DNA of 64,000 bases from an uncultured delta proteobacterium (lineage in GTDB: Bacteria; Desulfobacterota; Desulfobacteria; Desulfobacterales; JAHEIW01): positions 192,001-256,000 of the forward strand of contig CAVPNL010000015.1 of NCBI GenBank assembly GCA_963706575.1, given 5' to 3'. Shown here one piece after another: positions 5,068-27,011 of this stretch. A model generated the notes under the pieces. The model had not been told where the DNA came from, searched no databases, and saw nothing but the letters and a program-made list of their open reading frames with translations. The first letter of the stretch is position 1, and every line of letters starts with the position of its first letter. The position numbers were made by a program, and so were the translations under genes.

Positions 5068-5176
5068 GATTATTATCCTAAGCGCAAACTCTTGACACTT
5101 TGAAAAATTCAAGGATACCAGATGCTATACTTAACTTGCCCCGGTTGGAAATTGAGTTTAAGATTTTAGCCTGGAT

Positions 5177-5338
5177 CTATCGGATGCGAAGCGTGAATTG
5201 TTGAAAATACCACTCTTTTTCTGATTGTATGGCCATACCATATATTGAGGTGCTGGTCTGGCTTTGTTGGACAAAATCAGGAAGGGTAAAATTTTCTTCG
5301 GCCCAAGGGTCTTGATATCGAAAATCCAAAAGGATCAT
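5177..5338 (-). CDS. Small hypothetical protein (53 aa)
   Basis: Below the track cutoff; SD AGGAGG at 5345-5350; MILLDFRYQDPWAEENFTLPDFVQQSQTSTSIYGMAIQSEKEWYFQQFTLRIR. Confidence 0.4.
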   Translation of the reverse strand: MILLDFRYQDPWAEENFTLPDFVQQSQTSTSIYGMAIQSEKEWYFQQFTLRIR

Positions 5339-5514
5339 TTTCTGCCTCCTTTTCTGTTTTAATAGAAATATCAGGCAGATAATGACCCTTTCTACCTCTA
5401 AGAGTCAATCATCATTTTGTTACGGGTACTGGCTATGCTTCCACAATAGCTATATTTTATAGATAGCTTACCAAAATCTAAAATAAATTGCCTATTAGAA
5501 TCTCCTGTAGATCG

Positions 5515-9223: not shown

Positions 9224-12175
9224 ATGCTATTCGATATGAATCGGCGAACCTTCCTCAAGATTGCGGGTATGGGCAGCATTTCCCTGGCAGCAGGCTGCAG
9301 TCCTCCTGAAAAAAACCTGTTTTCCCTCGTTCACGCACCCGACGACATGGTAACCGGCAAAGCGACCTGGTATGCATCGACCTGCCGCGAATGCCCGGCC
9401 GGATGCGGCATTCTGGCTAAAAATCGCGAAGGGCGCGTTATCAAAATCGAAGGTAACCCCCTGCACCCCATCAACAACGGCAAGATCTGTATGCGGGGCC
9501 AGGCTGCGTTGCAGGCCATTTACAACCCCGACCGCATCAAAACCCCCTTGCTGAGGGAAAAAGACAAATGGCAACCCATTTCATTTTCAAAAGCGCGGTC
9601 CATTTTAAAAAATAAAACCCAGGAGGCTTCCCAAAAAGGACCTGATCACATCCGCATGTTGACAGAGGTCGTGGGGGAAAGCCTGCTGGCGCTCTTTTCG
9701 GATGCGCTCAATCGATGGAACGCGCGCGAACCGATGGTATATGAGCCCTTTTCCTATGAATCCCTAAAAACTGCCAACGAAAAAGTTTTCGGGCAAAACG
9801 GCCTGGTTTCCTATCATATGCAGGAGGCGGATATACTGGTTTCTTTCGGGGCCGATTTTCTGGAAACCTGGTTATCACCGGTTGAATACGCTCATAAATT
9901 TAAGTCCATGCATGCTTTCAAAAACGGCCAAAAAGTCTCATTTTACCATCTGAGCCCGGTTCAATCCCTGACAGGAGCCAACGCCGACTCCTGGTTGGCA
10001 TGCAACACCGGCAGCGAGGCCAGCATCGCCCTTGGGCTGGTTCGTCAGGCGCTTGATATCCGTAAAGGCAAAACACTGCCATGGTCTTTCCGTAAAGCGC
10101 TGCTTGAAGCGACAGCCCCTTATACCCAGGATCGAGTGCTGCAATCATCCGGCTTATCTTTGGCGCAATATGAAAAACTCATTATTAAGTTGATGGGTGC
10201 CCGCAAACCTCTGGTACTGGGTACCGGCACCGGCGCGGGCGATTTAAACGGCCTGCAGACCAACATCGCGGTAAATTTATTAAACCTGCTGCTGGACCCG
10301 GATTTAACGCTGCTGGATTTCAACCAGCGCCACCGTGTGGAAATTGCAGCCAAACGGTCTGCTGTGCTGCAATTTTTTGATCGCCTGAAAACGGATGCGG
10401 TTGAAGTCTTGATACTGAACAATGTCAATCCGGCTTTTAGTATAGCGCCCAAAAGCGGCGTGAAGGAGGTGCTAGAACAGGACGACTTGTTTGTGGTCAG
10501 CTTCAGCAATTTCATGGATGAAACTTCAGCGCTGGCTGATCTGATTTTTCCGGTCGCCATGCCACTTGAAACCTGGGATGAATATAGCGGCTGGCAATCG
10601 GTTACCTCCACCCTGCAGCCGGCCATGGGCAGATTAACCCGGTCGACCCATATCGGCGATGTTATCCTGGACACCGCTTTTAAAAATGAAAAGCCGTCTG
10701 AAAATTATAAAACCTATCTATTTTCCAGACTGGTGGCCGAGCGCAAAATTGAAGATGAAAAAGGGTGGGTGCAGCTCCTCCAGGTGGGCGGCGCCATCGA
10801 TTCACCTGCGGCCGCCGGTTTAGCGAAATTGGACCTGGAACCGCAAAAAATAACCGATCACCTGTCGCAACCTGCGGAAACCGCTGCGGCTGAGCTGATA
10901 TTCGGTGCCATTCCGTCTATCCGGTTCTTTGACGGCAGGGGTGCCAACAGGCCCTGGTTGTGTGAAATTCCGGATCCGCTGACGCGGGTGGCCTGGCAAA
11001 GCCCGGTCAGCATGCATCCTGACACGGCCAAAAAACAAAATATCGCCCAGGGTGATATCATCCAGATTGAATCGAAATGGGGCAGTTTGGAAGCACCGGT
11101 TTACGTGAACGGATTTGTAAAACCGGGGCTGCTGGTCATGAATATCGGCCAGGGGCATCACGCTTACGGGCGCTACGCGGAAAACCAGGGTGTCAATCCG
11201 ATCGTCATCTTACCGCCTGATGCGAATCCGGATTCAGGGGGTCCGCTTTTTTCCACGGATCAAATAAAGATTCGCCCAACCGGCCGGAAGTTGAAACTGG
11301 CCAACACGGACGGCAGCCGAACCCAGCACGAACGGACATTTGCGCTGACCGTCGGCCTGACGGAATTGAACCTGGGGAAAATGCCCAAAAGGGCCGGTCT
11401 GACCATGGAAGATTTTCCCTTAACGCTGCCGATTCCCGAAGGTTATGATCCCAAACGGGATTTTTATCCGGCCCATGATCACGAAAACTACCGCTGGGCA
11501 ATGGTGATTGATCTGGATCGCTGCATCGGATGCGGCGCCTGCTCGGCCGCCTGCTATGCCGAAAACAATGTCGGCATTGTGGGTGAAGAACGGGTCATCC
11601 AAGGACGGGAGATGACCTGGTTGAGTATCGAGCGCTATCAAGACCCGGACCACATGCAAAAGGTAACCTTTTTGCCCATGCTCTGCCAGCATTGTGATAA
11701 TGCCCCCTGCGAATCGGTTTGCCCGGTGTATGCGCCACACCATTCAAAAGAAGGGCTCAACAACCAGATTTACAATCGCTGCATCGGAACCCGTTTTTGT
11801 GTCCAGAACTGCCCGTACAAAGTGCGGCGATTCAACTGGTTCGACTGGGAATGGCCCGAACCCATGAATGTGCAGCTCAATCCCGATGTCACCGTTCGCA
11901 GCAAGGGGGTGATGGAAAAATGCTCCTTCTGTATTCAACGCATCAAGGTCGCTCACAGCAACGCCAAGAACGAAAAGCGCATGATCCGTGACGGTGAGGT
12001 CATCCCGGCTTGCGTGCAAACCTGCCCGACCGATGCCCTGGTCTTTGGCAGTTTGATGGACAAACACAGCCGGGTCAGGCAAATGGTGGATGACCCCCGG
12101 GCCTATCAGGCCCTGGGCTATTTGAACACCAAACCGGCGGTGATTTATCTTAAGAAAGTTTTGCAGGAAATATAA
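9224..12175 (+). CDS. actB: Alternative complex III subunit B (molybdopterin-oxidoreductase-like domain fused to NrfC-like Fe-S domain)
   Basis: Tat motif NRRTFLK plus lipobox LAAGC; C-terminal CIGCGAC, CQHC..PC..VCP, CIGTRFC (3Fe-4S type), CSFC..CVQTCP. Start may be 9236. Confidence 0.88.
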   Translation: MLFDMNRRTFLKIAGMGSISLAAGCSPPEKNLFSLVHAPDDMVTGKATWYASTCRECPAGCGILAKNREGRVIKIEGNPLHPINNGKICMRGQAALQAIYNPDRIKTPLLREKDKWQPISFSKARSILKNKTQEASQKGPDHIRMLTEVVGESLLALFSDALNRWNAREPMVYEPFSYESLKTANEKVFGQNGLVSYHMQEADILVSFGADFLETWLSPVEYAHKFKSMHAFKNGQKVSFYHLSPVQSLTGANADSWLACNTGSEASIALGLVRQALDIRKGKTLPWSFRKALLEATAPYTQDRVLQSSGLSLAQYEKLIIKLMGARKPLVLGTGTGAGDLNGLQTNIAVNLLNLLLDPDLTLLDFNQRHRVEIAAKRSAVLQFFDRLKTDAVEVLILNNVNPAFSIAPKSGVKEVLEQDDLFVVSFSNFMDETSALADLIFPVAMPLETWDEYSGWQSVTSTLQPAMGRLTRSTHIGDVILDTAFKNEKPSENYKTYLFSRLVAERKIEDEKGWVQLLQVGGAIDSPAAAGLAKLDLEPQKITDHLSQPAETAAAELIFGAIPSIRFFDGRGANRPWLCEIPDPLTRVAWQSPVSMHPDTAKKQNIAQGDIIQIESKWGSLEAPVYVNGFVKPGLLVMNIGQGHHAYGRYAENQGVNPIVILPPDANPDSGGPLFSTDQIKIRPTGRKLKLANTDGSRTQHERTFALTVGLTELNLGKMPKRAGLTMEDFPLTLPIPEGYDPKRDFYPAHDHENYRWAMVIDLDRCIGCGACSAACYAENNVGIVGEERVIQGREMTWLSIERYQDPDHMQKVTFLPMLCQHCDNAPCESVCPVYAPHHSKEGLNNQIYNRCIGTRFCVQNCPYKVRRFNWFDWEWPEPMNVQLNPDVTVRSKGVMEKCSFCIQRIKVAHSNAKNEKRMIRDGEVIPACVQTCPTDALVFGSLMDKHSRVRQMVDDPRAYQALGYLNTKPAVIYLKKVLQEI

Positions 12176-12179
12176 AAAA

Positions 12180-12354
12180 GAGCGTCTCGCTGAAGGCGAG
12201 ACTTTAGGAGCGGCCGTAAGGGCCTTAAGGAGCGTTCCGCTTCGCGGAACTTTAGGTTGGATTTAAAAAGTTTTGCCTCAAGCGAAGCGCTCCTCAAACA
12301 CAGCGCAAAAATTGCGCGGAGTGCTCCTCTAGTTTCGCTAAAAGCGAAACGCTC
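12180..12354. repeat. Inverted array of hairpin-containing units
   Basis: Three units GAGCG-[hairpin]-CTT(T/A)AG followed by three reverse units ending GCTC. Confidence 0.65.
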
Positions 12355-12429
12355 GGCTCATCACGAGAAAAATGATCGTGACTGAAAACCTAAATGATTG
12401 GTTTGTAAATTAACCTTTGGAACATTGAT

Positions 12430-13746
12430 ATGAGCCAACTGACGTACGCGAGCATTGACCAAACGGTACTGAACACCTTGAGTACGCCCAAAAAATACTA
12501 CTGGGCGATCGTGGCGGTTTTGTTTTTAGGCGTGCTGGTCGGTGCTGCCTGCTGGACCTATCAGATTTTTGTCGGTATTGGCGCCGGCGGTCAAAACAAC
12601 CCGGTGGGCTGGGGCACCTATCTGATCAACTTTGTCTTCTGGGTGGGAATTGCCCATTCAGGAACCCTGATTTCGGCCATCCTGCACCTGTTTCGGGCCG
12701 GATGGCGCAACCCCATTGCCCGGGCTGCTGAAACCATGACCGTTTTTGCGGTTTGCATTGCCGGGCTTTTCCCCTTTATCCATCTGGGGCGCGTCTGGCA
12801 GGTCTATTATATGTTGCCGATACCCAGTCAGCGACTCCTGTGGCCCAATTTTCTGTCACCGCTGATGTTTGATGTGATTGCCATCAGCACCTATCTGACC
12901 GTCAGCAGCCTATTCTGGTACACCGGGCTGTTGCCGGATCTGGCTGCCGTCAGAGATCGTTCCCGGGGCACCCGTAAAAAAATCTTTAACATCCTGGCGC
13001 TGGGATGGACCGGCGCCCACGAACAGTGGCGCCATTACACCCGCGGCTATCTGTTCTTTGCCGCTCTGGCGACACCCCTGGTGATCTCGGTGCACAGTGT
13101 CGTGTCCTGGGATTTTGCGCTGGGAATTGCACCCGGCTGGCATACCACCATATTTGCGCCTTACTTTGTGGCCGGTGCCATCCATTCCGGTTTAGCCATG
13201 GTGCTGACATTGATGATCCCATTGCGTAAAATTTTTAATTACCAGAAAATCATTACCAAAGAGGTCCTGGAAAATGTGGCCAAAACCATCGTTTTTACCG
13301 GTTTGATTGTCGGCTTTGCCTACGCCACCGAATTTTTTATCGCCTGGTACAGCCAGAATTCGGTTGAAATAGAGCAATTTCGCTGGCGGGCATTTGGTGA
13401 TTACCGCTGGGGATTTTACTTCATGGTATTGTGCAACACCCTGACACCGCTGCTGTTCCTGTTTAAAAAAATACGGACCACCGTCGCAGCCCTTTTTATT
13501 ATTTCGCTGATTGTCAATTTTGGAATGTGGTGGGAACGATTTGTCATCATCGTCGGCGGCGTGGCGCGCGGCTTTTCGCCCCATGCATGGGGATTATACG
13601 CGCCCACCCTGATCGAATACGGCATTATGCTGGGCAGCTTCTGCCTGTTTTTCTTCTTTTTTCTGTTATTTGCCAAGCATCTGCCGTCGGTCTCGATGAC
13701 AGAAATGAAAGAAACCCTTGATCATGGAGGCAGCCATGCAGGGTAA
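12430..13746 (+). CDS. actC: Alternative complex III subunit C (NrfD/PsrC family quinol-site subunit)
   Basis: NFVFWVGIAHSGTLISAIL, RAAETMT, HLGRVW, WPNFLSPLMFD, VHSVVSWDFA, PGWHTTIFAPYFVAGA. Confidence 0.93.
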   Translation: MSQLTYASIDQTVLNTLSTPKKYYWAIVAVLFLGVLVGAACWTYQIFVGIGAGGQNNPVGWGTYLINFVFWVGIAHSGTLISAILHLFRAGWRNPIARAAETMTVFAVCIAGLFPFIHLGRVWQVYYMLPIPSQRLLWPNFLSPLMFDVIAISTYLTVSSLFWYTGLLPDLAAVRDRSRGTRKKIFNILALGWTGAHEQWRHYTRGYLFFAALATPLVISVHSVVSWDFALGIAPGWHTTIFAPYFVAGAIHSGLAMVLTLMIPLRKIFNYQKIITKEVLENVAKTIVFTGLIVGFAYATEFFIAWYSQNSVEIEQFRWRAFGDYRWGFYFMVLCNTLTPLLFLFKKIRTTVAALFIISLIVNFGMWWERFVIIVGGVARGFSPHAWGLYAPTLIEYGIMLGSFCLFFFFFLLFAKHLPSVSMTEMKETLDHGGSHAG

Positions 13747-14242
13747 AAAATACATTATGGGGCTTTTTAAAAATGAAGACCAGGTAGTTTCAACGCTGGC
13801 GGCGCTGAAAGAAACTGCCTACAAATTTCAGCGGGTTCACAGCCCGATTCCGAGTCATAAGATTATGGCTGCTCTCGACTTAAAAAAAAGCAAGGTCGGC
13901 TGGTTTACCCTGGCCGGCGGTATCCTCGGATTCATCAGCGGATTCGCCCTGGCCATATTTTGTTCAATTCAGTGGAATTTGATTGTCAGCGGAAAGCCGA
14001 TCATATCGCTGATTCCGTTTTTCATAGTTGGATTTGAATTTACCATCCTCTTTGCGGTTTTTGGCAATATCATCGGCCTGCTCACTCAGACGCGATTGCC
14101 CAGCTTTAAGAAAATGGAATATTACGACCCGCGTTGCTCGGGTGAACATTTCGGCGTGCTGGCAGCGTGTGATCCCGTGCATCAGGATGGCTTGAAAGAA
14201 TTTTTTCAGCAAAACGGAGGGGAAGTAAAGGTTTTTGAATAA
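13736..14242 (+). CDS. actD: Alternative complex III subunit D (DUF3341)
   Basis: HSPIP, two TM helices, VSGKP..FEFTILF, YDPR; start 13736 after SD GGAGG. Confidence 0.85.
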   Translation: MQGKKYIMGLFKNEDQVVSTLAALKETAYKFQRVHSPIPSHKIMAALDLKKSKVGWFTLAGGILGFISGFALAIFCSIQWNLIVSGKPIISLIPFFIVGFEFTILFAVFGNIIGLLTQTRLPSFKKMEYYDPRCSGEHFGVLAACDPVHQDGLKEFFQQNGGEVKVFE

Positions 14243-14244
14243 AC

Positions 14245-14327
14245 GTTTTATTGGTTTGATTGGTTTCATTGGTTTCATTAGTTTGACGCAAAGGCAAAAA
14301 AAATTAAACCAATTTAACCAATTCAAC
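14245..14327. repeat. Inverted array of 9-bp tandem repeats (ATTGGTTTC / AACCAATT)
   Basis: Four forward units then reverse-complement units, between actD and actF. Confidence 0.75.
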
Positions 14328-14343
14328 ATCCAGGCAAATTAAT

Positions 14344-15564
14344 ATGGCACCCAACGATACGAATACCGATAAGCCAAACAAATCACCGGCGAGGTGGATA
14401 TTTTTCGTCCTGATCATCATCGGTATGGCGGCTTTTATCCACGGCATTATGAGTCCCCATCCGGAAAAAGCCTGGCAGGCCTATTTAATTAACTTTCTAC
14501 TGTGGTCTGCAATCGCCCAGGGGGCGGTTCTCTTTTCAGCAGTGATGCATATGACCAAGGCCCGCTGGAGTGGTCCGCTATCCGCATTATCTGAATCCTT
14601 TGCGGCCTTTTTCCCGCTCTCATTCGTGCTGTTTCTGCTGCTATTTTTGGGACGCGCCCATATCTTTCCGTGGCTGCATGAGGATCTGCACGGCAAAGAA
14701 GTCTGGCTCAATATCCCGTTTCTTTTCACACGGGATTGCATCGGCCTGCTGGTGCTCTATGCCATTGGATTTGCCTATCTCTATAATGCGCTGCAGCTGC
14801 GATCTGACGCGAATCAAGCTCAGGGCGCATTTCGCCAAATGATTTACAAAGGCTGGATCCGCAACAACCGCAGCCCCAAAAAGGTAAAGAAAAAAATGAC
14901 CATCTGGGCCGGTCTTTATATTCTGGCATTCACGCTCGTGCTGAGCCTGATCGGCTATGACCTGGTGATGAGTATGGACCCCCACTGGATATCGACCCTG
15001 TTCGGGGGCTACACCTTTGTAAAAGCCTTTTATGTCGGATTGGGCGCCTTAATCATTCTGGCGGCCATCACCCGCATCAAAAGAGGCAAAGCCTCCGGTT
15101 TGGAGCCATCCCATTTTCATGATATCGGCAAACTGTTTTTTGCATTTTGCCTGCTGTGGGCCGACTTTTTCTATGTCCAGCTAACGGTCATCTGGTACGG
15201 CAATATACCAGAGGAAACCCATTATGTTATTGAACGCACCGTATCAGTCCCCTGGAACACATTGGCCTGGACCATTTTTGTGATCTGTTTCATTATTCCG
15301 TTTTTGATTCTTTTGAATAAAAGGGTGAAATCGATGCCGGTATTTATGGTGATTTTATGCAGCTTTATTATCATCGGATTCTGGCTGGAGCACCTTTTGC
15401 TGTTGGCGCCTGCGTTGAGCCATGATGTTCATTCGCTGTCGTTAAGTGTTTTTGATGGGTTGATAACGGTGGGCTTTTTAGGGCTGATGGCCGCTGCGGT
15501 AAGTTTCTTTTTAAAACACTTCCCGGAAATTTCCAGGCCGGCAGCGGTCGGCCCGTCGGGTTAA
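14344..15564 (+). CDS. actF: Alternative complex III subunit F
   Basis: Polytopic; WLNIPF..R, DLVMSMDPHWISTLFG, HDIGKLFFAF, QLTVIWYGNIPEET. Confidence 0.88.
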   Translation: MAPNDTNTDKPNKSPARWIFFVLIIIGMAAFIHGIMSPHPEKAWQAYLINFLLWSAIAQGAVLFSAVMHMTKARWSGPLSALSESFAAFFPLSFVLFLLLFLGRAHIFPWLHEDLHGKEVWLNIPFLFTRDCIGLLVLYAIGFAYLYNALQLRSDANQAQGAFRQMIYKGWIRNNRSPKKVKKKMTIWAGLYILAFTLVLSLIGYDLVMSMDPHWISTLFGGYTFVKAFYVGLGALIILAAITRIKRGKASGLEPSHFHDIGKLFFAFCLLWADFFYVQLTVIWYGNIPEETHYVIERTVSVPWNTLAWTIFVICFIIPFLILLNKRVKSMPVFMVILCSFIIIGFWLEHLLLLAPALSHDVHSLSLSVFDGLITVGFLGLMAAAVSFFLKHFPEISRPAAVGPSG

Positions 15565-15596
15565 AAGAAACAATTGTTTAACAAGGTATTAAACCA

Positions 15597-16110
15597 TTGA
15601 GTAAAAATGCAATCGCCATTTTAACAACCCTGGGGACCGCTCTGTTTATTGCGGCATTTATTTTCTTTTTCTATACCCCGCCGCAAGCCCAAATCGGGCC
15701 GGAACAACCGATCCCATTCAGCCATAATGTCCACAGCGGTGTTAAACAAATCCAGTGCCAGTATTGTCACCCCTATCGTGGCCTATTCCAATCATCCCGG
15801 AATACCGGCCGTGGGAAAATGCCTGCACTGCCATAAATATATTATTGCCAACCATCCCTGGATCAAGAAGGAACACGAATACTTTAACGCCAATACACCA
15901 ACGCCCTGGGTAAAAGTCAATTATGTGGCCGAACACGTGCTGTTTAATCACCAGCGTCATATTAACAATAAAATTGCCTGTACCGAATGTCACGGACAAG
16001 TGCAGAACCTTCAGCGCTTACCGCAAAAAATTTGGCGTATGGGTGAGTGCGTCGCGTGTCACCGAAAGAAAAATGCCAATCTCGACTGCTGGCTGGCGTG
16101 TCATAGTTAA
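15597..16110 (+). pseudogene. actA: Pentaheme cytochrome c ActA, interrupted by one extra base near 15777 (real frameshift or assembly error)
   Basis: Frame 1: TM anchor, PEQPIPFSHNVH, CQYCH; frame 2: CLHCH, FNHQRH, CTECH, MGECVACH, CWLACH. Removing one base from CCC TAT C GTG gives a continuous 170-aa protein. Confidence 0.85.
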
Positions 16111-16113
16111 TTA

Positions 16114-16191
16114 GCATAGCGCATGGAGCATAGAGCATGGCGTTTATTAACGGATGTTTTTTCGCTCTGCGCTTTGCGCTCTGCCCTATGC
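16114..16191. repeat. Inverted array of 7-bp tandem repeats (GCATRGM)
   Basis: gcatagc gcatgga gcataga gcatggc ... gctctgc gctttgc gctctgc cctatgc. Confidence 0.8.
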
Positions 16192-16215
16192 AAAGCGAAA
16201 AAGGGAGTTTAGATT

Positions 16216-17595
16216 TTGTCGACTGAAGTCACTGAAAATGTGCCATCAAACAATCCGACAGCCAAGGCATTCACGTTGACATCCGCATTTTGGTTTGCCG
16301 CGGCAACCTCTCTTGGCATGATCGGCGCGGGTTACCTGATTGCGCCGGATTTCCTGGCCAACATTGAATATGTTCACTTTGGTCGAGTAAGACCGATGCA
16401 CATCAATGCCGTGTTGTTCGGGTTTGTCACGCCGGGTTTATTGGCTGTGGCTTTTTACTATATCCCCAGACTTTTGCGAACTGAACTGTTCAGCCACAAA
16501 CTGGGTGTGTTCAGCGCCATTTTCTGGAACATCACGGTGGCATCCGGCCTCATTGGCATCAGCCTCGGTTACACCCAGGGACGCGAGTATGCCGAATTGC
16601 CCTGGCCGGTTGATATTATGGTGGTTATCAGCTTCTCTTTGGTTGTATTCAACATTTTAATGACCGTCCGGCAACGAGAAGAACGAATTTTGTATGTATC
16701 CATCTGGTATACGACCGCCGCTGTCATTCTGACATCCATCACCTATTGTCTGGGCAACGTCATCTGGAAACCGGACACCGGCGCCCTGGTGGGTATCCCG
16801 GATGCTATTCTCCTGTGGTTCTACGGCCACAATATTTTCGGGCTTCTACTCACGCCCATGGGATTAGGGGTGGCCTATTATGTGCTGCCAATTGCCACGC
16901 GCAGTCCGCTATACAGCCACTCACTGTCGCTGCTGGGATTCTGGTCTTTGATCATTGTCTATACCCACATCGGCACCCATCACCTGCTGCAGGTGCCGGT
17001 GCCCACCTGGCTGAAAACCATATCGATTGTCGACAGTATCGCCATGGTGATCCCGGTGATGATTGTATTGATCAATCTGTGGTACACCATCAAAGGCAAG
17101 CTGGGAGAGATTCATGCCAACATCGGCGCCAAATTCGTGCTGACCGGCACCATTTATTATTTCTTTGTCAATATCCAGGGCTCGATGATGGCCCTGCCGC
17201 ATGTGCAGCGCATCACCCACTTCAACAACTGGGTGGTCGGCCATGCACATATCGGTGTGCTCGGATTTGCCGGCATAACGGCTCTGGGGGGACTGTATTT
17301 CATTTTGCCCAAAATTACGGGCAAACCCCTGTACAGCAAATTTCTGGCCGACGTCCAATACTGGCTGGTGCTGATCGGCGTCACGGGCTTTGCGATCGTT
17401 TTGACCATCGCGGGGTTAATTCAGGGCAATGCCTGGTACAATGGTGAAACCCTTTATCGGACGTTACCCATGATTCAACCCTATTACATTTTAAGAGCGT
17501 CGCTGGGGGCCTTTATTATGATTGGCGCATACATCGGATTATACAACGTGATTCGATCGTTATTTTTTAATCGTGGAGCTGCAACATGCGAATGA
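16216..17595 (+). CDS. ccoN: cbb3-type (C-family) heme-copper oxidase subunit I, divergent
   Basis: GRVRPMHINAVLFGF, GREYAELPW, WFYGHN, helix VII Y..IGTHH, WVVGHAH; TTG start with SD AGGGAG. Confidence 0.88.
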   Translation: MSTEVTENVPSNNPTAKAFTLTSAFWFAAATSLGMIGAGYLIAPDFLANIEYVHFGRVRPMHINAVLFGFVTPGLLAVAFYYIPRLLRTELFSHKLGVFSAIFWNITVASGLIGISLGYTQGREYAELPWPVDIMVVISFSLVVFNILMTVRQREERILYVSIWYTTAAVILTSITYCLGNVIWKPDTGALVGIPDAILLWFYGHNIFGLLLTPMGLGVAYYVLPIATRSPLYSHSLSLLGFWSLIIVYTHIGTHHLLQVPVPTWLKTISIVDSIAMVIPVMIVLINLWYTIKGKLGEIHANIGAKFVLTGTIYYFFVNIQGSMMALPHVQRITHFNNWVVGHAHIGVLGFAGITALGGLYFILPKITGKPLYSKFLADVQYWLVLIGVTGFAIVLTIAGLIQGNAWYNGETLYRTLPMIQPYYILRASLGAFIMIGAYIGLYNVIRSLFFNRGAATCE

Positions 17596-18518
17596 CCCCG
17601 ACTGTCATATTCACGGGCATCCTGGCGCTGCTGACGGCCATCACACTGATTGTCGTCTATTGGCCCTACGCCACCCGTGATACGACACCATCAGATATTT
17701 TTCGCTCGCGCACGGCGATTGAAAATGCGGGTCGCAAGATTTACCTGGAAAACGGGTGTGTTTACTGTCACAGCCAGTCTATTCGGGCGATCGATTGGGG
17801 CCACGGGGCACAACGCATTGCCCAATCCGGTGACTATATTGCCGATGAACCCGTGGCGCTGGGATCCCAGCGCACCGGTGTGGATCTGTCGCAGGAAGGC
17901 GGCGAGCATCCGGACGACTGGCACATTGCCCATTTTATCAACCCTCGCTACACACGGCCCAGCTCGATCATGCCGCCTTTTAAGTGGCTGGGTACGCAAC
18001 GCATCGATACGCTGACCCAGTACATTCAAAGTCTGGGATTCAAGGATGCCGACCGGCGCATGCAGCGCCAGCGTTACTGGAAAGAGGAATCCATCAGGGC
18101 TTATGAAGCCGGGCCCGATGTGAACGCCCGCTGGCTGGCGGAAATCGTTCCGGAGGGATGGCGCAACATACCGAATCCGTATCCGACCACTACAGCCAGC
18201 CTGCAACGGGGCCATAAAATTTATCAGAATTTTTGTATAGGCTGCCACGGCCCGATCGGTGACGGCATGGGACCGGCCCAACCCTGGATATACCCGCCGC
18301 CGTTGAATTTCACCATTTTAAAGGGCAGAGAAATATCCGGCGGGATCATATACTATCAACTGATGAACGGCATTACCGGCACCGCTATGCCGTATTTTAA
18401 ACGCGATCTGGAATCGCAAAAAATCTGGGAAGTCGGTGACTACATCGCGGTTTATTTTATCAACCAAAGCGATGCCAATACCGAGCCGCGCGGTATCGAT
18501 TCTGCGTGGGAACCCTAA
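17586..18518 (+). CDS. ccoO: cbb3 oxidase subunit II fused to a second class I cytochrome c domain
   Basis: GRKIYLENGCVYCHSQSIR, GSQRTG.DL, SIMP; second domain IPNPY..CIGCH..GTAMP. Start may be 17592 (ATGA overlap). Confidence 0.88.
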   Translation: MRMTPTVIFTGILALLTAITLIVVYWPYATRDTTPSDIFRSRTAIENAGRKIYLENGCVYCHSQSIRAIDWGHGAQRIAQSGDYIADEPVALGSQRTGVDLSQEGGEHPDDWHIAHFINPRYTRPSSIMPPFKWLGTQRIDTLTQYIQSLGFKDADRRMQRQRYWKEESIRAYEAGPDVNARWLAEIVPEGWRNIPNPYPTTTASLQRGHKIYQNFCIGCHGPIGDGMGPAQPWIYPPPLNFTILKGREISGGIIYYQLMNGITGTAMPYFKRDLESQKIWEVGDYIAVYFINQSDANTEPRGIDSAWEP

Positions 18519-18522
18519 AGGA

Positions 18523-18612
18523 GTTTGATTGGTTTCATTGGTTCAATTGGTTAAATTGGTTCGGCACCAAACGAATAAAACAAATAAAACCAATCCAACC
18601 AATTAAACAAAC
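18523..18612. repeat. Inverted array of 9-bp tandem repeats (same family as 14245)
   Basis: gtttgattg gtttcattg gttcaattg gttaaattg ... cgaataaaa caaataaaa ccaatccaa ccaattaaa. Confidence 0.8.
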
Positions 18613-18622
18613 GATAGTAAAC

Positions 18623-18886
18623 ATGTACTACCCTTATTTCATCGCATACATGGCCGCCGGTTTTATCATCAGCCTAGTGGTGTTCTTCTGGGCCCTGAAC
18701 AGCGGTCAGTTCAAAGACCAGCAGCGGGCGCGCTTTCTGCCGCTGCAAAATGATCTGCAAACCAGACCGGCAAAGGTACCGCGATTTGCACGCATTCAAA
18801 CCGCTGTCCTGTTTACGCTGGTCTGCTTATGCCTGGCAAGCGCGGTGGCGGTGGTAATCTTTTCCCTGATGAAGGGCCTCAAATAA
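18623..18886 (+). CDS. ccoS: cbb3 oxidase assembly protein CcoS with extra C-terminal TM helix
   Basis: FFWALNSGQFKD motif; the longer track ORF merely reads through the repeat. Confidence 0.8.
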   Translation: MYYPYFIAYMAAGFIISLVVFFWALNSGQFKDQQRARFLPLQNDLQTRPAKVPRFARIQTAVLFTLVCLCLASAVAVVIFSLMKGLK

Positions 18887-18937
18887 TACCCGTGCGTGTA
18901 TAAAGCGCCGGTTAAGACACGAAAAAGGAAAGCGGTT

Positions 18938-19213
18938 ATGAGATATTTTCAGTTATTGGGCATTCAACATTTTGCCTTGTATCTGTTCCCGGCCCTGGCA
19001 ACGATTGTGTTGTTCATCATCGGTCTGGGATATTACTATATTGGTCGTAAAGACTCGGAGGAGCGCAAAACCCGCATCATCGAGCAGTATCCCGGTGGCA
19101 TCGAAGGTCGCAACGCGCCGTTTCCCTTGTTTGTGGTTCTCATTCTTGTCGGAACCATCGGCTGGTCATTGGCATATATTATCTTAATCGGCGTTTTAGG
19201 AGTGAGAATCTGA
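18938..19213 (+). CDS. Small two-TM membrane protein resembling the CcoQ/CcoP N-terminal region
   Basis: TM - YPGGIEGRNAPFP - TM resembles the DGIxExxNPxP motif of CcoP N-termini; SD AAGGAA. Confidence 0.6.
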   Translation: MRYFQLLGIQHFALYLFPALATIVLFIIGLGYYYIGRKDSEERKTRIIEQYPGGIEGRNAPFPLFVVLILVGTIGWSLAYIILIGVLGVRI

Positions 19214-19497
19214 TGGAACATCCGGTGCACGAGGCATCCGCATTCAAAACCTGGCTCCTTGTATTTTTATGTGTCGCCATCGTGGTATTCCAGGGCTGGC
19301 TGGCATTTACCGTAATCGGTGATCTCGGCCAGCCCGATTGGGACTACCGGCCAATCGCAGACGTTCCCGGAGAATCTGCCTTTGCGGTCTACGATCCCTA
19401 TCATCCGCTGCCTTACGCGCAGCATGTGCTCAAAGAGCAGGGCCAGGAAGAAAATCCAAAGCATTTGTATGTGTTGCCTTTTGAAGGTGTTGAATAA
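19213..19497 (+). CDS. Small single-TM hypothetical protein
   Basis: Translationally coupled (TGATG) within the operon. Confidence 0.7.
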   Translation: MEHPVHEASAFKTWLLVFLCVAIVVFQGWLAFTVIGDLGQPDWDYRPIADVPGESAFAVYDPYHPLPYAQHVLKEQGQEENPKHLYVLPFEGVE

Positions 19498-20016
19498 ATG
19501 AAAAAAATAATCGGACTTCTACTTGTCGCTCTGGTTTTAATTCTGGGTGCCTACCATCTGTTGATATTTTATGACAATAACTTCCGTTACGGTCGCATGC
19601 GTGAAACGCCGGCCGTGCGGCCGTATGAAGAACCACTTCTGATCAAGGAAGCCGGTCTTGTTCCGATCAACGGTGGCGAAGCTATCTACCGCGTATCAAG
19701 CGGAACCGAAATACAGTCACCCATTGATATGGCGCAACCGACCGTCATTAACAGAGGAGAAGCCGTATACCTAACCTATTGCGCCCAGTGCCATGGCCAC
19801 AATCACGATGGCAAGGGCACCGTCGGTCAGAGTTTTGCCCCGCTGCCGACCGATCTGCGCAGCGCCAAAGTCCAGGAGAGCCCTGCGGGGGTGCTTTTCC
19901 GAAATGTCAGCTACGGCGTCCCCGATGGCCGGCAGCCTCCTTTGCACGCAACCATCGCAGTTAAAGACCGCTGGAAGGTTGTGGCCTACGTCAAGTCCCT
20001 TGGCACCCGTGAATAA
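19498..20016 (+). CDS. Membrane-anchored monoheme cytochrome c, ActE-like
   Basis: TM anchor, MRETPAVRPYE, RGEAVY..YCAQCHG..DGKG.V, DRWKVVAYV. Confidence 0.75.
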   Translation: MKKIIGLLLVALVLILGAYHLLIFYDNNFRYGRMRETPAVRPYEEPLLIKEAGLVPINGGEAIYRVSSGTEIQSPIDMAQPTVINRGEAVYLTYCAQCHGHNHDGKGTVGQSFAPLPTDLRSAKVQESPAGVLFRNVSYGVPDGRQPPLHATIAVKDRWKVVAYVKSLGTRE

Positions 20017-20069
20017 ATCTCCGCAAACCCAAATTCCATTTTTTTTATACCTTATTCATAATAACCTTT

Positions 20070-20251
20070 GGTTTCAGGTGTCGGGTGTCAGGTGTCAGTT
20101 TTAGAAGACAGAGGTCAGGCAACTGAGGACAGATGGTGAAACTGAAGGACGAAGCACTTTATTTGTTCTCGATTCGGCTGAGCTCGCAGCAGGCGGTTTT
20201 CTGTTTTCCGTCATCTGTTTGCTGACCCCTGAAACCTGACACCTGACACCT
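20070..20251. repeat. Nested inverted arrays of 7-bp repeats (CAGGTGT outer, ACAGAGG inner)
   Basis: tcaggtg tcgggtg tcaggtg tcag ... ctgaccc ctgaaac ctgacac ctgacac, with an inner gacagag / ctgtttt array. Confidence 0.8.
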
Positions 20252-20290
20252 TGATTAAAGGAATTTATTATTTAGAATTTACCTGGATTC

Positions 20291-22897
20291 ATGAATAAAC
20301 ACCCTAACCCAGAAACAACCTCCCAAACATGCAACCTGTGTGGTCTGCCGTTGCGTTATGGAACCGTTAATTCGGTATTTTCAGGAGACACATATGCTTT
20401 TTGCTGTAACGGCTGCCGGCAGGTGTTTACGATTTTAATGGAGTCCACGGATTCGCCGAATCCTGAAGCTTTTCGTGAAACCGACCTGTTCAGACAATGC
20501 CGGGCCAGGGGCATCATTCCCGGCTCCGAAGAAGAACTGACCGGGGGGGACAATACCCATGCGCAAGCCGCACTGCTGCCTTCAGCGGTAGACCGGGACA
20601 ACGTTCTGACGCTCAGGCTGCGGGTCAGCAACATGTGGTGCCCGGCCTGCGCCTGGATCATCGACGAATCCTTGAAAAAAACCCCGGGCGTTGTCGATTC
20701 AGCCTGTAATTTTTCCACGGATCGGCTTCAGGTGGTTTACGATCCTGTCAAAGTCACCTCCCATCAGATCATCAAATCGATCGGCAAACTCGGTTACCGG
20801 ACGGCAGCGCCCGGTGAATCCGAAAAAACAACCGAACGCCGCAGGGAATTTGTTCGATTTGTCGTTTCTGCTTTTTTGACCATGAACGTCATGATGTTAT
20901 CCTTTGCCCTGTATACGGGGTTTTTTACGGATCTTTCTCCTGAAAATGCGGCTAAAATTTCCTGGCCCATGTTCGTCATGGCGACCGCCGTTTTAATCTA
21001 TGGCGGATATGATTTTTATAAAAAAGCCTGGGCCGGATTACGCAATGCCGCTTTCAGCATGGAAACCCTGATCATCATCGGTGCTTTGAGTGCTTACCTT
21101 TTCAGCACCTATAATCTTTTTGCAAGAAGCATTCATCTATATTACGACACCGCTTCGATGCTCATCACGCTGGTGCTCTTAGGCAAAACCCTGGAGCGCC
21201 GCGCCAAAGGAAAAGTTTTAGAAGATTTGGAAAATTTCTTTGCGTTGATGCCCACCAAGGTCAGAATATGCAGCGGCGATTTCCCCGAGGGCCGCTATGT
21301 GGCCATTGAACAGCTGATTGCCGGCGACATCTTTCGGGTAAGCGAAACGGAAATTATCCCGGCAGATGGCCGGATCCTTTCCGGCAACGGCAGCGTGGAA
21401 GAATCGTCACTGACCGGTGAGCCCTTACCGGTTACCAAAAAACCGGGTGACTTTATCAGAAGCGGTGCCCGGGTTCAGCAGGGCCGTTTTAAAATCAAGG
21501 CCGAAAAGGTCGGCACCGATTCTACGCTGGGGCAGATGATGCAGATCATCGAAAAAACACTGCTGACCAAAATGCCCATCGAGGGTAAAACCGATGTTAT
21601 ATTGCAGTGGTTCGTTCCCGTCATTCTGGTGCTGGCGGCAACCACCGGCATGGTGTGCGGGTTCATGGGATTATCGATAGAAACATCGATCCTGCGAGCC
21701 GTAACCGTGATGGTCATCTCCTGCCCCTGCGCCCTGGGAATTGCCATCCCTCTGGCCCGGGTGGCCGGTATCTCCATTGCCGGGAAAAAGGGTATCCTGG
21801 TGCGCAATTTCACTGCATTTGAACTGGCCCGCCGCATTACCGCATTTGTCTTTGACAAAACCGGAACCATCACACACGGCAACTGGACCCTGCAAAAAAT
21901 TGTGGCGTTCGCGCCTTATGATGAAAACCAGGGGCTTAAATGGGCGGCGGGGCTGGAGCAAAATTCAGATCATTTTATCGGAAGGGAAATTCTGCGGCAG
22001 GCACAAAAACGAAATATTGAACCCGCAACCATAGACGATATTCAGACGGAAGAAAATGGTGTAATCGGCCGCTTCGCGGGTGACATCCTGAAGATCGGAT
22101 CGGCGGACTTTCTGAAGGACACGACGGTAAAATTCAATCAACTTCCAGAGTCAACGACCACCCGCACAGCGGGTGGCTTGGATTTTTCCGCCATAGGCGG
22201 GAAAATACAGGGGCGCGAAGTGCCCCAATCGTGGCGGGTGGAACCGGGTGCGAAGCACCCGGTTTGGAAAACCCAATCCGATGGCAACCAACAGGGATCC
22301 GCATATTCGTATGTATATATGAGCATCGCGGATCGGCCCGCCGCCGTATTTGTTTTCGGAGACAGGATTCGAAACGGTGCCAGGGCAACCGTTGAAAAAT
22401 TGCATCAGCAGGGATTTAGGCTGGCATTGGTTTCCGGAGACGGAATTGAAACCACCCGGGCCATCGCAAAGGATCTCGGCATCCATGATGTTCACGGCGG
22501 TCAGATGCCGCAGGATAAGGTCGCAATTGTCAAAACCCTGCAAGGCCAGAACCATCCGGTGGCCATGGTGGGCGACGGTATCAATGACGCCCCCGCCCTC
22601 GTTCAGGCCGATCTCTCCCTGGCCGTACATTCCGGAGCGAATCTGGGGGAAGAAGTGGCGGATGTGACCCTGATGCGCGCAGAACCTGAACAACTCATTG
22701 ATTTTTTTAGATTTGCCGGCGCTGTTAATAAAAAAATAAGCCAAAATCTAATCTTCACATTTGCCTACAATGTGATCAGCATCCCCATGGCCATGAGTGG
22801 CCTGCTGACCCCGCTGGTGGCTGTGTCGGCCATGCTCTTGAGCAGCATCAGCGTCATTGGAAATACCCTGATGCTGGTACGGTCAGAGGACAGATGA
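20291..22897 (+). CDS. ccoI: P1B-type Cu ATPase, CcoI/FixI-like
   Basis: N-terminal CxxC..FCCxGC, HMA domain MWCPAC, LTGE, CPC, DKTGT, GDGIND, YN, M..SS. Confidence 0.9.
22150..22266. mobile_element. Multi-hairpin element inserted in-frame within ccoI (ends approximate)
   Basis: Four consecutive hairpins; starts GTCAACGACCACCCGCACAGCGGGTGGCTTG; adds about 40 residues between GSADFL and SYVYM. Confidence 0.6.
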
Positions 22898-23422: not shown

Positions 23423-25480
23423 ATGCCTAAAAAATCAATCACCCTTCACCAGCACCTGACGGCTGTCAAAGACGGCAAGCTGCGGTTTGAAAACGCCTTC
23501 CAGGGGGTCTCTCGCATGGTCCTGGAAAGCGAAATTGAAAAAGTGGTGGTGAACGGCAAGACAACCTACGATTTTAAGATCTTCCGCAACGGTTCCAAAC
23601 ACATCATCGGCATGTATGAGGAGATCAACAGCCTTGTTTCCTATGTGAAAGATGCGGCCGAAGGCGGTTCTTCCCAGGAAATGGCCTTTGTCCTTGTCGG
23701 TGAACCGGGAAACGGCAAAACCTTCCTCATTGAATTTCTGGCCAGCAGATATCGCAACTTCCTGTCTATAGAAAACAATCGCAAGTATACGTTTAAGTTC
23801 CTGAATCTGGACAGGGTCGGCAACTACGGCAAGATTACTGCAATTGAGTCCCAGACCTACGAAGATCCCATGCTCCTGGCCATGAATCTGTTTGATGATT
23901 CGGATAAAAATAAGGAATATCTGGCGAAACAGATCGGCTTTTCCGATAAGGATATTGAAAAACTCTATGAAAATTACCGTCCTTTAGGCGCTTGCAGCGG
24001 CTATATCTGGAATGATATCCTGACGCACTGTGACGGAAATATCGATGAAACACTTAAATTTGTCGAGATCACACCGGTACCGTTGACCGAAAGCCTGGGC
24101 ACGCTGACCGGAAAATATCCGGCCAAAGACAAAATCACCTCCTCGGCCGTGGACCTGCTGGGCGAAGAGTCCATCCAGCGCTTGCTGCATATCACTGATA
24201 CCAACAACCCCTACCGTTTTGATTTACGGCGCGGCGCCCTGGCGCGGGTCGCCGGCGGTGGAATCCATTTCAGTGACGAAATCTTCAAAAACAAAAAAGA
24301 TCTGGTTCAGGTTTACCTGGGAGTGATTCAGAACCGCAGTATCGAGATCGACGGTTTCAAATGGCCCATTGACACCTTAATTGTTGCCACCAGCAACAAC
24401 TCCGAGTTCCACCGCTTTTTGTCGGAAAAAGAAGAGGCGCCCATCGTCGATCGCTGCAGGATCTGCTATGTGTCCCACAACACCAACTACAAGCTCCAGA
24501 AAGAGCTGACCAATTATGCCATCGGCAGTGAAACCCGCACCACCCTCACCCACGAAGATCTGCACCAGGATCCGAATATGAATTATGCTTCCTCGGTGGC
24601 CGCTGTTTTAAGCCGACTGCCGCGATCTGAAAAACTGACACCGGTGGAAACCATGAAACTGGCGGCCGGAGAGGTCGCCGGCGAAAAAAGCATTAAAACA
24701 TTGGCGGAGGTCATCGACACCCTTAACCAGGATCCGGACATCATCAATCGCTTTGGCCAGAAAGGTCTTGGGCAACGGAATCTGGGCCGGGCCATCCAGT
24801 TGTTGATTGAAAGTTCTGAAACCAATGAAGGCCGGTGCATGTTCGCTTATGATATCTTTAAGGCGTTGGAGCGCATTGTTCTGGATTATGTTACCGAAGC
24901 CAACGATCGGGCCAAATATCTTGAAGATCTCAAAACCGGCAAAGGCTTGTATCGCGAACGGATTATGACCGAAATGTTCAACGCCTATATGGATGAGCCC
25001 TACGCCATTCGCAAGGACGTCATGAACTATGTGAACATGATCATCGGAATTGATGCCGAAAACTTAGGCGCCGATAAGATGTGGAAATACAAAGACCCGC
25101 AAAACAGCGAGCTGAAGGCCTTGAAAATCGATGAACGCTATATCAACAGTGTGGAAGAACGGCTGGGGCTTAAAACCGAAGAACAGCGTGAGTCCTTTCG
25201 AACTTCGATCCGCAAAATATACGGCCAGAAGATTTCAGTTGATCCGGATTACGATTTTATGGACAACCTGGAACTGGTCAAAGCCGTGACCGATGTTCGC
25301 CTCAAATCCGATATCGCCGGTGCCGGCAGCCTGATCGGCGCGCTGGCCAACCGCACCAATGAGGAAAATCAGAAGCTGTATGATCGCATGATCGAAACCA
25401 TGCTCAAAAAACTGGGCTACTGCCGCACCTGCGCCCAGAAGACAATCGAGTACTTCTGTACCCAGGAAGACGAGAAGTAA
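23423..25480 (+). CDS. prkA: PrkA/YeaG-family AAA+ protein (serine protein kinase family), copy 1
   Basis: Walker A GEPGNGKT, Walker B-like IHFSDE, IVATSN..E, IVDR; C-terminal GYCxxCA; SD GGAGG. Confidence 0.85.
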   Translation: MPKKSITLHQHLTAVKDGKLRFENAFQGVSRMVLESEIEKVVVNGKTTYDFKIFRNGSKHIIGMYEEINSLVSYVKDAAEGGSSQEMAFVLVGEPGNGKTFLIEFLASRYRNFLSIENNRKYTFKFLNLDRVGNYGKITAIESQTYEDPMLLAMNLFDDSDKNKEYLAKQIGFSDKDIEKLYENYRPLGACSGYIWNDILTHCDGNIDETLKFVEITPVPLTESLGTLTGKYPAKDKITSSAVDLLGEESIQRLLHITDTNNPYRFDLRRGALARVAGGGIHFSDEIFKNKKDLVQVYLGVIQNRSIEIDGFKWPIDTLIVATSNNSEFHRFLSEKEEAPIVDRCRICYVSHNTNYKLQKELTNYAIGSETRTTLTHEDLHQDPNMNYASSVAAVLSRLPRSEKLTPVETMKLAAGEVAGEKSIKTLAEVIDTLNQDPDIINRFGQKGLGQRNLGRAIQLLIESSETNEGRCMFAYDIFKALERIVLDYVTEANDRAKYLEDLKTGKGLYRERIMTEMFNAYMDEPYAIRKDVMNYVNMIIGIDAENLGADKMWKYKDPQNSELKALKIDERYINSVEERLGLKTEEQRESFRTSIRKIYGQKISVDPDYDFMDNLELVKAVTDVRLKSDIAGAGSLIGALANRTNEENQKLYDRMIETMLKKLGYCRTCAQKTIEYFCTQEDEK

Positions 25481-25483
25481 AAA

Positions 25484-25555
25484 GCATGGTGCATGGCGCA
25501 TGGCGCATAGCGTTCGAGAGCTTTGACCCCATGCCCCCTGCCCCATGCTCCCTGC
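25484..25555. repeat. Inverted array of 7-bp repeats (GCATGGC family)
   Basis: gcatggt gcatggc gcatggc gcatagc ... cccatgc cccctgc cccatgc tccctgc. Confidence 0.8.
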
Positions 25556-25572
25556 CGTAATGGGGAGCTATT

Positions 25573-26955
25573 ATGGATCCAAAACTTGTAGCGCTTTATG
25601 AACGTTTGAAGGAAAAAGGACTGACGCCCGAGCAGGAGCGCAAGATTCTTGCTGAGATGGAAGCAGCCGGCTCCCATACTTTACCCGATAGCGGCAGGCA
25701 CGGATCCTATAAATCATTCCGTAAGTATCAGAATATTTACAATTATGATGACCTGTCATTTTTGCAGGGCATCACCGCGATGCAAAGTACCCATAACACC
25801 AGCCTGCGATCCATCGATGAGCTGCTCGAAAGGGATGCGCAGCGCGAAGAAGACGGGTTCCCGCGTAAAATAAACGTGGGCCGCTTGATCAAGCCGGGTA
25901 AAGCGGGCAAAGACAAGGTTGTGGTCGTTCCTTCGACCGTTGAAGAAAAATTTATTCATGACCCCACATTGCAAACCGCCGAAGAAGAGTCCTCCGGCGG
26001 ATCCGGCGATGGGGAAGAAGGCGATGTGATCGGTGAGCAGCCGGTCCATGCGCCGGATCAAGACGGGGGCACCGGTCCGGGACAGGGGGAAGGCGCTCAG
26101 CACGAAATGGAATCCAACGCCTATGATCTGGGCCGGATCCTGACCGAAAAATTTCAACTGCCGAACCTCAAGGACAAAGGCAAAAAGCGTTCCCTCACCC
26201 GTTACACGTATGATCTCACCGATCGACACCGCGGCTTCGGCCAGCTATTGGATAAAAAAGCCACCCTGAAAAAAATTGTCGAAACCAACATTCATCTCGG
26301 CAACCTGCATGATATTAACGCCATTGATCCTGCCGAATTTCTAGTTTCACCGGCGGACATGGTCTATCGGGTACTGTCGCGTGAAAAGGATTTTGAGTCT
26401 CAGGCGATGGTCTTTTTTCTGCGGGATTATTCCGGTTCGATGGCCGGCAAATCAACGGAACTGGTCGTCACCCAGCATGTGTTGATATACAGCTGGTTGC
26501 TATATCAATATGCCATGCAGGTGGAAACGCGTTTTATTCTGCATGACACCGAAGCTTCTGAGGTAAAAGACTTTCACACTTACTACAATTCGGCGGTGGC
26601 CGGCGGCACCCAGGTATCTTCCGCATACCGCCTGGTCAATGAAATTGTTGAAAAAGAAAACCTGGCCCGGGACTATAATATTTACATTTTTCACGGCACC
26701 GATGGAGATGATTGGGACACGGATGGAAAAGAATCCTTACCCCTGCTTGAAAAAATGTTGAGCTACGCCAATCGGGTCGGTATTTCCATCGCCGAACACA
26801 CTCAGGACACCACCCACAACACCGAAGTCGAAAAATATTTAAAAAAATCCGGACTGCTGACGGAAAAGCCGGATTTAGTCAGGCTGGACGTCATGAATCA
26901 AAGCGCCAACGAACCGCGGCTGATCGAAGGCATCAAGAAACTTATATCGGAGTAA
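25573..26955 (+). CDS. yeaH: YeaH/YhbH (DUF444) vWA-domain protein
   Basis: Gly/acidic linker GSGDGEEGDVIG, LPNLKDK, MIDAS DYSGSM, GGT..SSAY, FHGTDGDDW. Confidence 0.85.
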   Translation: MDPKLVALYERLKEKGLTPEQERKILAEMEAAGSHTLPDSGRHGSYKSFRKYQNIYNYDDLSFLQGITAMQSTHNTSLRSIDELLERDAQREEDGFPRKINVGRLIKPGKAGKDKVVVVPSTVEEKFIHDPTLQTAEEESSGGSGDGEEGDVIGEQPVHAPDQDGGTGPGQGEGAQHEMESNAYDLGRILTEKFQLPNLKDKGKKRSLTRYTYDLTDRHRGFGQLLDKKATLKKIVETNIHLGNLHDINAIDPAEFLVSPADMVYRVLSREKDFESQAMVFFLRDYSGSMAGKSTELVVTQHVLIYSWLLYQYAMQVETRFILHDTEASEVKDFHTYYNSAVAGGTQVSSAYRLVNEIVEKENLARDYNIYIFHGTDGDDWDTDGKESLPLLEKMLSYANRVGISIAEHTQDTTHNTEVEKYLKKSGLLTEKPDLVRLDVMNQSANEPRLIEGIKKLISE

Positions 26956-27011
26956 GGCAACATGAATTAAAGCGCGCTTTTAACATATCAATCTTCGGCA
27001 TCAAATTAAAC

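Follow-up and report, generated by a model that had tools for sequence, protein, structure and literature searches.

Does a block of interleaved act and cco genes in an uncultured deltaproteobacterium encode one respiratory assembly, or two whose genes are neighbors? The window analyzed here is a stretch of 64,000 nucleotides of assembly GCA_963706575.1 (Desulfobacterota; contig CAVPNL010000015.1, positions 192,001 to 256,000 of the forward strand). Its positions 9224-22897 carry twelve genes, all on the + strand, that by Pfam, NCBIfam and PDB searches read actB-C-D-F-A-ccoN-ccoO(diheme)-ccoS-orfX-orfY-cytZ-ccoI, and that combine the subunits of an alternative complex III (ACIII) with those of a C-family heme-copper oxidase. 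The subunit set, the cofactor ligands, the fixed gene order and the shared ancestry are evident in the sequences, and we favor, with moderate confidence, the reading that the block specifies a menaquinol:O2 supercomplex of ACIII and the C-family oxidase. The genes, in window coordinates, are the following.

actB, 9224..12175, + strand: Tat-type fused B1-B2 protein with motifs for three [4Fe-4S] clusters and one [3Fe-4S] cluster; the start may be at 9236
actC, 12430..13746, + strand: NrfD-family membrane subunit, predicted to oxidize quinol
actD, 13736..14242, + strand: PF11821 protein (143 bits, cut-off 25.7), overlapping the actC stop
actF, 14344..15564, + strand: ActF, the four top PDB matches being ActF chains
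actA, 15597..16110, + strand: pentaheme cytochrome c with an N-terminal membrane helix and CX3CH as last heme motif; frameshifted in the assembly
ccoN-like, 16216..17595, + strand: catalytic subunit of a divergent C-family heme-copper oxidase, of the ~34% identity class
ccoO, diheme, 17586..18518, + strand: FixO domain followed by an ActE-like class I domain, with methionines M129 and M268
ccoS-like, 18623..18886, + strand: weak FixS/ccoS matches; second membrane helix predicted from hydropathy
orfX, 18938..19213, + strand: lone N-terminal two-helix CcoP domain without the cytochrome domains
orfY, 19213..19497, + strand: one-helix membrane protein with a conserved Gln-His near the C-terminus
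cytZ, 19498..20016, + strand: membrane-anchored ActE homologue with RQP where ActE has xMP
ccoI, 20291..22897, + strand: P1B-type ATPase, presumably for copper delivery

The spacing between these genes ranges from overlaps to 274 bases. For comparison we used the best 80 of 341 loci confirmed in a scan of GTDB species genomes, all 80 from metagenome-assembled genomes, and 27 further loci from a 301-genome sample of the phylum, giving 107 loci (L051-L157); the residue counts below come from alignments of 89-125 rows, in which about 12 genomes are present twice. All 107 loci are colinear with the window, so that the gene order is not due to chance, and the full set of 12 genes is present in 56 of them. 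The incomplete ones mostly stop at a contig edge or a gap, with a few lacking a match to a single gene; one locus (L123) has no genes past ccoO, but the assembly has a gap there. Among the 86 loci that span ccoS to cytZ, orfY is found in 85 and orfX in 82. Apparent gene-order swaps in some loci proved to be artefacts of sorting the open reading frames (ORFs). This survey across Desulfobacterota upholds the order from actB to ccoI proposed in a preliminary description of the window, with actA adjoining ccoN and an ActE-like cytochrome among the cco genes. As a side observation, locus L032 has a 134-residue ORF between actB and actC (5065-5469), which we take to resemble a GxxExxY-type protein.

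Judged by its sequence, the membrane half is a true ACIII and not a Qrc complex. The top PDB matches of ActB are four ACIII ActB chains (403-330 bits), ActC matches R. marinus ActC (6f0k_C) with 461 bits, and the ActA of a relative matches ACIII ActA chains only. Fused ActB with its cluster motifs, the ActC quinol site, ActD, ActF and a pentaheme ActA are all present; an ActE with a His/Met heme and the order actABCDEF are absent, the order being B-C-D-F-A with the actE homologue displaced. The residues named for the quinol site of R. marinus ActC, His139, Asp169 and Asp253 (PMC5928083), correspond to H118, D148 and D228 of the window ActC, which are invariant in 104/104 rows. In ActB, the 3Fe-4S-type motif C853-x-G-T-R-x-C859 is kept in 89/89 rows. 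An N-terminal four-cysteine motif of the FS0 type (C54/57/61/89), which is absent from R. marinus ActB, is found in 87 of 89 rows, the remaining two being gapped there. We rejected the idea that this motif is unique to the merged operon, as 13 of 19 canonical-order ACIII loci of the phylum carry it; a conserved molybdenum-ligating Ser was likewise rejected, the candidate position being mostly Ala.

The FS0-type motif, shared with the QrcB of the host, and the fact that the top NCBIfam matches of ActB are QrcB and QrcC raise the alternative that the membrane half is Qrc-like and runs in reverse, from cytochrome c to menaquinone, with the oxidase as a passenger. QrcABCD of sulfate reducers does consist of homologous modules, has the motif in its B subunit and occurs in the same hosts. 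However, it has separate B and C genes, lacks ActD, ActE and ActF, and reduces menaquinone (PMC8076601), whereas the window block has neither separate QrcB and QrcC nor QrcD; it has B1 and B2 joined in a single protein, and it also encodes ActD, ActF and an ActE homologue. The QrcB and QrcC matches lie far under the cut-off (250 < 440 and 230 < 400), the FS0-type motif is also a feature of the canonical-order loci noted above, and the host has a true Qrc cluster on another contig (C8). In a quick IQ-TREE analysis of ActC (69 rows), the operon sequences form one clade (support 96 for 46 rows, 89 for 47) beside a canonical-order ACIII (L172), and the host QrcD falls outside this clade on a long branch. 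The tree and the PDB matches therefore exclude the grouping with Qrc that the preliminary description had named as a refutation, and we regard a reversed, Qrc-like role as highly improbable.

As assembled, actA comprises 514 bases in two frames, with one extra base near position 15775 that the earlier reading of the ORFs had overlooked. This base, together with a 42-residue insertion in CcoI, could be taken as a sign that the operon is decaying in the source genome. Near-identical contigs from two runs (X2 and X5, differing at 2/148 and 4/368 letters) are without the extra base, however, and 122 of 127 loci (some genomes counted twice) encode an unbroken ActA with its five hemes; three of the other five lie at contig edges and two come from an error-rich assembly. 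From these comparisons, an assembly error appears the likeliest explanation, over a private mutation. The remaining 11 genes are open. The ccoI insertion derives from a palindromic dispersed repeat (window 22150-22278, fold z-score -6.1) with 85-91% copies on contigs C2, C4, C6 and C18; it is in frame and, among 16 relatives aligned, common only to L049. Decay of the operon is thus scarcely credible.

The oxidase half belongs to the C family. CcoN matches the solved CcoN structures with 231-239 bits, and H62, H205, H255, H256, H343 and H345, which we take to be the six His ligands, as well as Y249, presumably the cross-link Tyr of helix VII, are kept in 124-125 of 125 rows. In alignment with P. 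stutzeri CcoN, T/S213, Y221, S238, N287, Y315 and H335, which we assume to form the K-type proton channel, are kept, as are the glutamates E124 and E127. In CcoO the heme motifs and both methionines are invariant (122/122 rows). The His ligands, cross-link Tyr, K-channel residues and His/Met CcoO of a cbb3 enzyme are therefore all there, and its active-center Glu and its diheme CcoP are not. We assume the former to be E323 of P. stutzeri, at which the window CcoN has Q321; the position is Gln in 124 of 125 rows and Arg in one. A Glu is described as mandatory in authentic cbb3 enzymes (PMC5492636). The preliminary label of a cbb3-type oxidase thus holds as far as membership of the C family, but the enzyme is a divergent Gln-type member and not a canonical cbb3, for which reason O2 reduction is only inferred.

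Gln at this position is not special to the block. We rejected it as a unique mark because it also occurs in 9 of 13 ordinary ccoN loci of the phylum (L158-L170), and it therefore marks a broad branch. His251, at the position of P. stutzeri W253, distinguishes the two groups, being found in 125/125 rows and in none of the 13 other ccoN. Those loci share with the window a diheme CcoO in most cases and a ccoI that is usually near, but they show only 31-35% identity, lie on a separate branch and lack act genes. In a FastTree analysis of 141 rows, which took in 82 of 150 listed 50% representatives (the rest being too short or fragmentary), the operon CcoN form a clade with support 99, far from the Glu-type CcoN. 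Many of these listed C-family representatives (P0121-P0270) are without most His ligands, and most of the intact ones have Gln, not Glu, at the E323 position. A CcoN model that AlphaFold built on six aligned rows (mean pLDDT 62, below 50 around residues 250-263) was too poor for His251 to be placed.

The two exchanges, E323 to Gln and W253 to an invariant His near the CuB ligands, together with the distance of this branch from the Glu-type CcoN, also suit a terminal enzyme that reduces nitric oxide (NO) or another small gas, i.e., a quinol:NO or dual O2/NO reductase. The hosts are mostly dsrA-bearing anaerobes (21 of 28 carriers), the sixth ligand position of the CytZ heme is open, and C-family oxidases react with nitrogen oxides (PMC8780969). 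Against this stand the retained cross-link Tyr and K-channel residues, ccoI and ccoS, as well as the Gln of the ordinary deltaproteobacterial loci. Both cNOR and qNOR have an HxWxE glutamate motif in helix VI and are not known to have a cross-link Tyr. The window CcoN instead has WFYGHN and Y249; the motif HLWVE is absent from it and present in the separate qNOR of the host. We consider an NO-reducing enzyme quite unlikely, and O2 reduction by the supercomplex remains the preferred reading.

From the ccoGHIS assembly set, ccoI and the ccoS-like gene are in the operon; ccoG and ccoH gave no match above the family cut-off in any part of the host genome, which is 92% complete and the only one searched for them. 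Full CcoP (TIGR00782) stays below cut-off in the host and in all 28 carriers discussed below. OrfX, however, is the CcoP membrane domain: its PDB matches at E up to 10 are five, all CcoP chains and weak (E 0.028-1.5), and 8 of 9 OrfX members match FixP_N below cut-off. The earlier statement that ccoP, ccoG and ccoH are missing thus stands for full-length genes in the host, but ccoP is not wholly absent, its N-terminal domain being orfX.

OrfY has 1460 homologue clusters, with no Pfam label among the 120 listed, and H71 is kept in 97 of 104 rows; a search of the ESM Atlas with OrfY returned chance-level matches only (0.81 or less). CytZ has four ActE chains within its five top PDB matches. R. 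marinus ActE is His/Met-ligated (PMC5928083), and an ActE with such a heme is not universal in ACIII (PMC8552683). In CytZ the methionine is missing: Q146 aligns exactly with M268 of the second CcoO domain, and the MP motif is found in 0/100 CytZ rows versus 12/12 canonical ActE. A complex prediction of CytZ with heme and OrfY scored 0.00, which speaks neither for nor against binding. Across six genomes of the genus, the ratio of nonsynonymous to synonymous substitutions (dN/dS) is 0.13 for the ccoS-like gene, 0.10 for orfY and 0.12 for cytZ, by which measure these small ORFs are under purifying selection.

A second clade-specific change lies at the end of the ActA heme wire. At the fifth heme, 121 of 122 loci have the motif CX3CH, versus CX2CH in 18/18 canonical-order ACIII, so that both changes at the exit of the wire, in ActA and in the Met-less ActE homologue, are specific to the operon clade. 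The loss of the ActE methionine, the altered ActA heme and the intact ActE-like domain of CcoO would fit a single rewiring event. In the deepest member (L151), a single frame encodes both ActC and ActD, and the fifth motif is a normal CX2CH.

The CcoN clade (at least 48% identity) occurs in 29 of the 301 sampled genomes of the phylum, and 28 of these carriers have an ActC match; the one without it is an assembly in 830 contigs, where the contig that carries ccoN begins inside actA. The 28 best ActC matches of the sample are all from carriers. An ActC-like match was obtained in 68 genomes, 40 of them without the CcoN clade; the 19 other ACIII loci examined all start with actA, none has this ccoN, and four have a distant heme-copper gene nearby. 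Act clusters are missing from all 13 ordinary ccoN loci. In pairwise identity over 95 loci, ActC and CcoN correlate (rho 0.85) about as closely as ActB and ActC (0.87). The preliminary description had held that independent distribution of the halves would speak against a joint system; in this sample the halves are co-distributed. One genome (G226) has two divergent operon copies (L143 and L147). Another member comes from a record labelled Planctomycetota, and the clade may therefore extend beyond the phylum.

Several observations weigh against a supercomplex. The rho of 0.85 is no proof of physical co-evolution, because kin share gene order and divergence, and joint inheritance cannot be separated from physical coupling in it. 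In L050 (G019), ActC is 87% identical to that of the window, CcoN only 62% and OrfY about 40%, which suggests an in-place replacement of ccoN to cytZ by a more distant version; the oxidase half having seemingly been swapped, the halves would be exchangeable within the clade. Nearest neighbors of the two halves are discordant in 9 of 95 loci, L050 included. Of 21 further genomes in the same genus, 4 gave no match, actA is broken in the source assembly, and OrfX is missing in four loci of one family. The OrfX position of CcoP E49, the proton-entry Glu, is mostly Gly (71 of 105), and the Glu of authentic cbb3 is replaced by Gln in CcoN. Binding of the halves to each other, their activity and their co-transcription are predicted parts of the reading.

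These points bear on the strongest alternative, in which the genes are co-regulated but ACIII and oxidase are separate complexes, connected by a mobile membrane-anchored cytochrome, either CytZ or the second CcoO domain on a flexible linker. Gene clustering is no proof of binding, CytZ has its own membrane anchor, and the L050 exchange suggests that the halves are separable between relatives; the spacers of 101-274 bases, in which repeats form hairpins, could also permit processing of a transcript. The intergenic gaps 12176-12429, 14243-14343, 16108-16200, 18519-18622 and 20017-20290 contain dispersed repeats, for each of which blast gives 10 to 136 matches in the genome; in several, arms with a period of 7 or 9 bases fold into hairpins. 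A promoter scan stayed at chance level (18 vs 18.6); terminator-like sites numbered 33 vs 21.5, many of them within genes or repeats. Contigs of relatives in four RNA libraries (matching threshold 88%) cover 24-30 of 30 bins, and were not counted as expression because strand and single transcript are not visible and DNA may be present. On the other side, an ordinary high-potential cytochrome shuttle needs an axial methionine, which CytZ lacks; ActA, ActE and the oxidase have matching clade-specific changes; and the genes of the two halves are interleaved. Separate complexes are accordingly a serious alternative, yet an unlikely one, and we retain the supercomplex as the preferred reading.

In such a supercomplex, menaquinol would be oxidized at ActC (H118/D148/D228), and electrons would pass through the [3Fe-4S] cluster of ActB to the five ActA hemes. 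They may leave at the remodelled fifth heme (CX3CH) to the ActE-like second domain of CcoO (His/Met268), and continue via CcoO heme 1 and heme b to the b3-CuB center of CcoN; there, protons arriving through the K-type channel would serve for the reduction of O2. The extra CcoO domain would in this way be the link that stands in for both ActE and the CcoP hemes. OrfX may act as the CcoP membrane scaffold, CcoI and CcoS would load copper and heme, and the Met-less CytZ may have been kept as a structural or ligand-binding subunit, for whose heme OrfY His71 is, speculatively, the sixth ligand. The putative role is high-affinity removal of O2, possibly energy-conserving, in redox-fluctuating sediment. 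ActE is not needed for the passage of electrons to the oxidase in F. johnsoniae (PMC8552683), and ACIII-oxidase supercomplexes have been shown for aa3/caa3 enzymes (PMC5928083; PMC8552683).

Known systems differ from the block in several respects. The ACIII that partners an A-family oxidase (PMC5928083) likewise has ActA, B, C, D, F and an ActE homologue, the quinol-site residues, the Fe-S motifs and adjacent oxidase genes. The window partner, in contrast, is of the C family, the order is B-C-D-F-A with actE among the cco genes, and the ActE homologue without Met ligand, the CX3CH of ActA heme 5 and the FS0-type motif of ActB set it apart. With P. stutzeri CcoNOP (3MK7) and ccoNOQP-GHIS the block shares the six His, the cross-link Tyr, the K-channel, the CcoO heme domain, ccoI and ccoS; it differs in Gln for E323, His for W253, the diheme CcoO and a CcoP cut to its membrane domain, and the host has OrfY and CytZ in addition, with ccoG, ccoH and a bc1 complex not found in it. 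The Act of Pelobacter carbinolicus is arranged differently again (PMC3543383).

Refojo and colleagues reportedly noted that cbb3 genes follow some act clusters, so that the gene linkage of ACIII and cbb3 as such is probably not new. One survey (PMC8076601) recorded ACIII in 37% of deltaproteobacterial species, and oxygen-reductase genes, usually of the A2 type, often come after act clusters (literature set including PMC8361435, PMC9386147, PMC6431628, PMC10591310, PMC10066037 and bioRxiv 10.1101/328856). A cbb3-type oxidase is present in Desulfofaba, which reduces O2, as reported for D. hansenii (PMC10116758); the supplement of that paper lists ccoN and ccoO, and the five gene numbers directly before ccoN are absent among the matches listed, which is a hint only. 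The main text of the Desulfoconcordia paper (PMC13548325) does not contain "cbb", "Cco" or "complex III". Our literature search, with key reviews outside its coverage, returned no account of this gene order, nor of ACIII in combination with this oxidase branch.

The host genome, of Desulfobacterales type to judge by how its near homologues are named, encodes dsrA, dsrD, a cytochrome bd, the qNOR and the Qrc cluster mentioned above. No bc1 cytochrome b was found in it, and ACIII is therefore the only evident donor for the oxidase. Other O2-related genes are grouped on the same contig: 4 kb upstream of the operon are a perR-like gene and katG (window 1989-4787), and cydA is located about 10 kb past the end of the window (G000:C15:266056). 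Next after the operon comes a prkA-DUF444-spoVR-prkA block (window 23423-31322), and prkA is adjacent in several close relatives. By eye, the flanks of L033, L034 and L044 contain genes resembling inositol-phosphate synthase, a TIM-barrel protein, ubiG and a prenyltransferase.

A far-reaching interpretation, which we think possible but on balance doubtful, is that the block represents a phylum-wide, undescribed supercomplex of ACIII and C-family oxidase, in which the heme exit is rewired and two small subunits are new, and which supports energy-conserving micro-aerobic respiration in uncultured sediment sulfate reducers; the Met-less ActE and His251/Gln321 would then amount to new ligand chemistry, for gas sensing or dual O2/NO turnover.

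The finding bears on whether sulfate reducers gain energy from O2 or merely scavenge it. Carriers include many uncultured sediment bacteria, mostly sulfate reducers, organisms usually regarded as strict anaerobes; they span coastal-sediment lineages and the Delta 1 symbiont of Olavius (Olavius sp. associated proteobacterium Delta 1, L071), in which the full 12-gene block was seen. If the supercomplex reading is correct, about one in ten of the sampled Desulfobacterota genomes (29/301) would contain a complete, self-contained chain from quinol to O2, and ACIII would form a supercomplex with a C-family oxidase. The block offers one marker operon and one expressible unit, and it may be a first point of entry to what the large Gln-type branch, entered in databases simply as cbb3, does.

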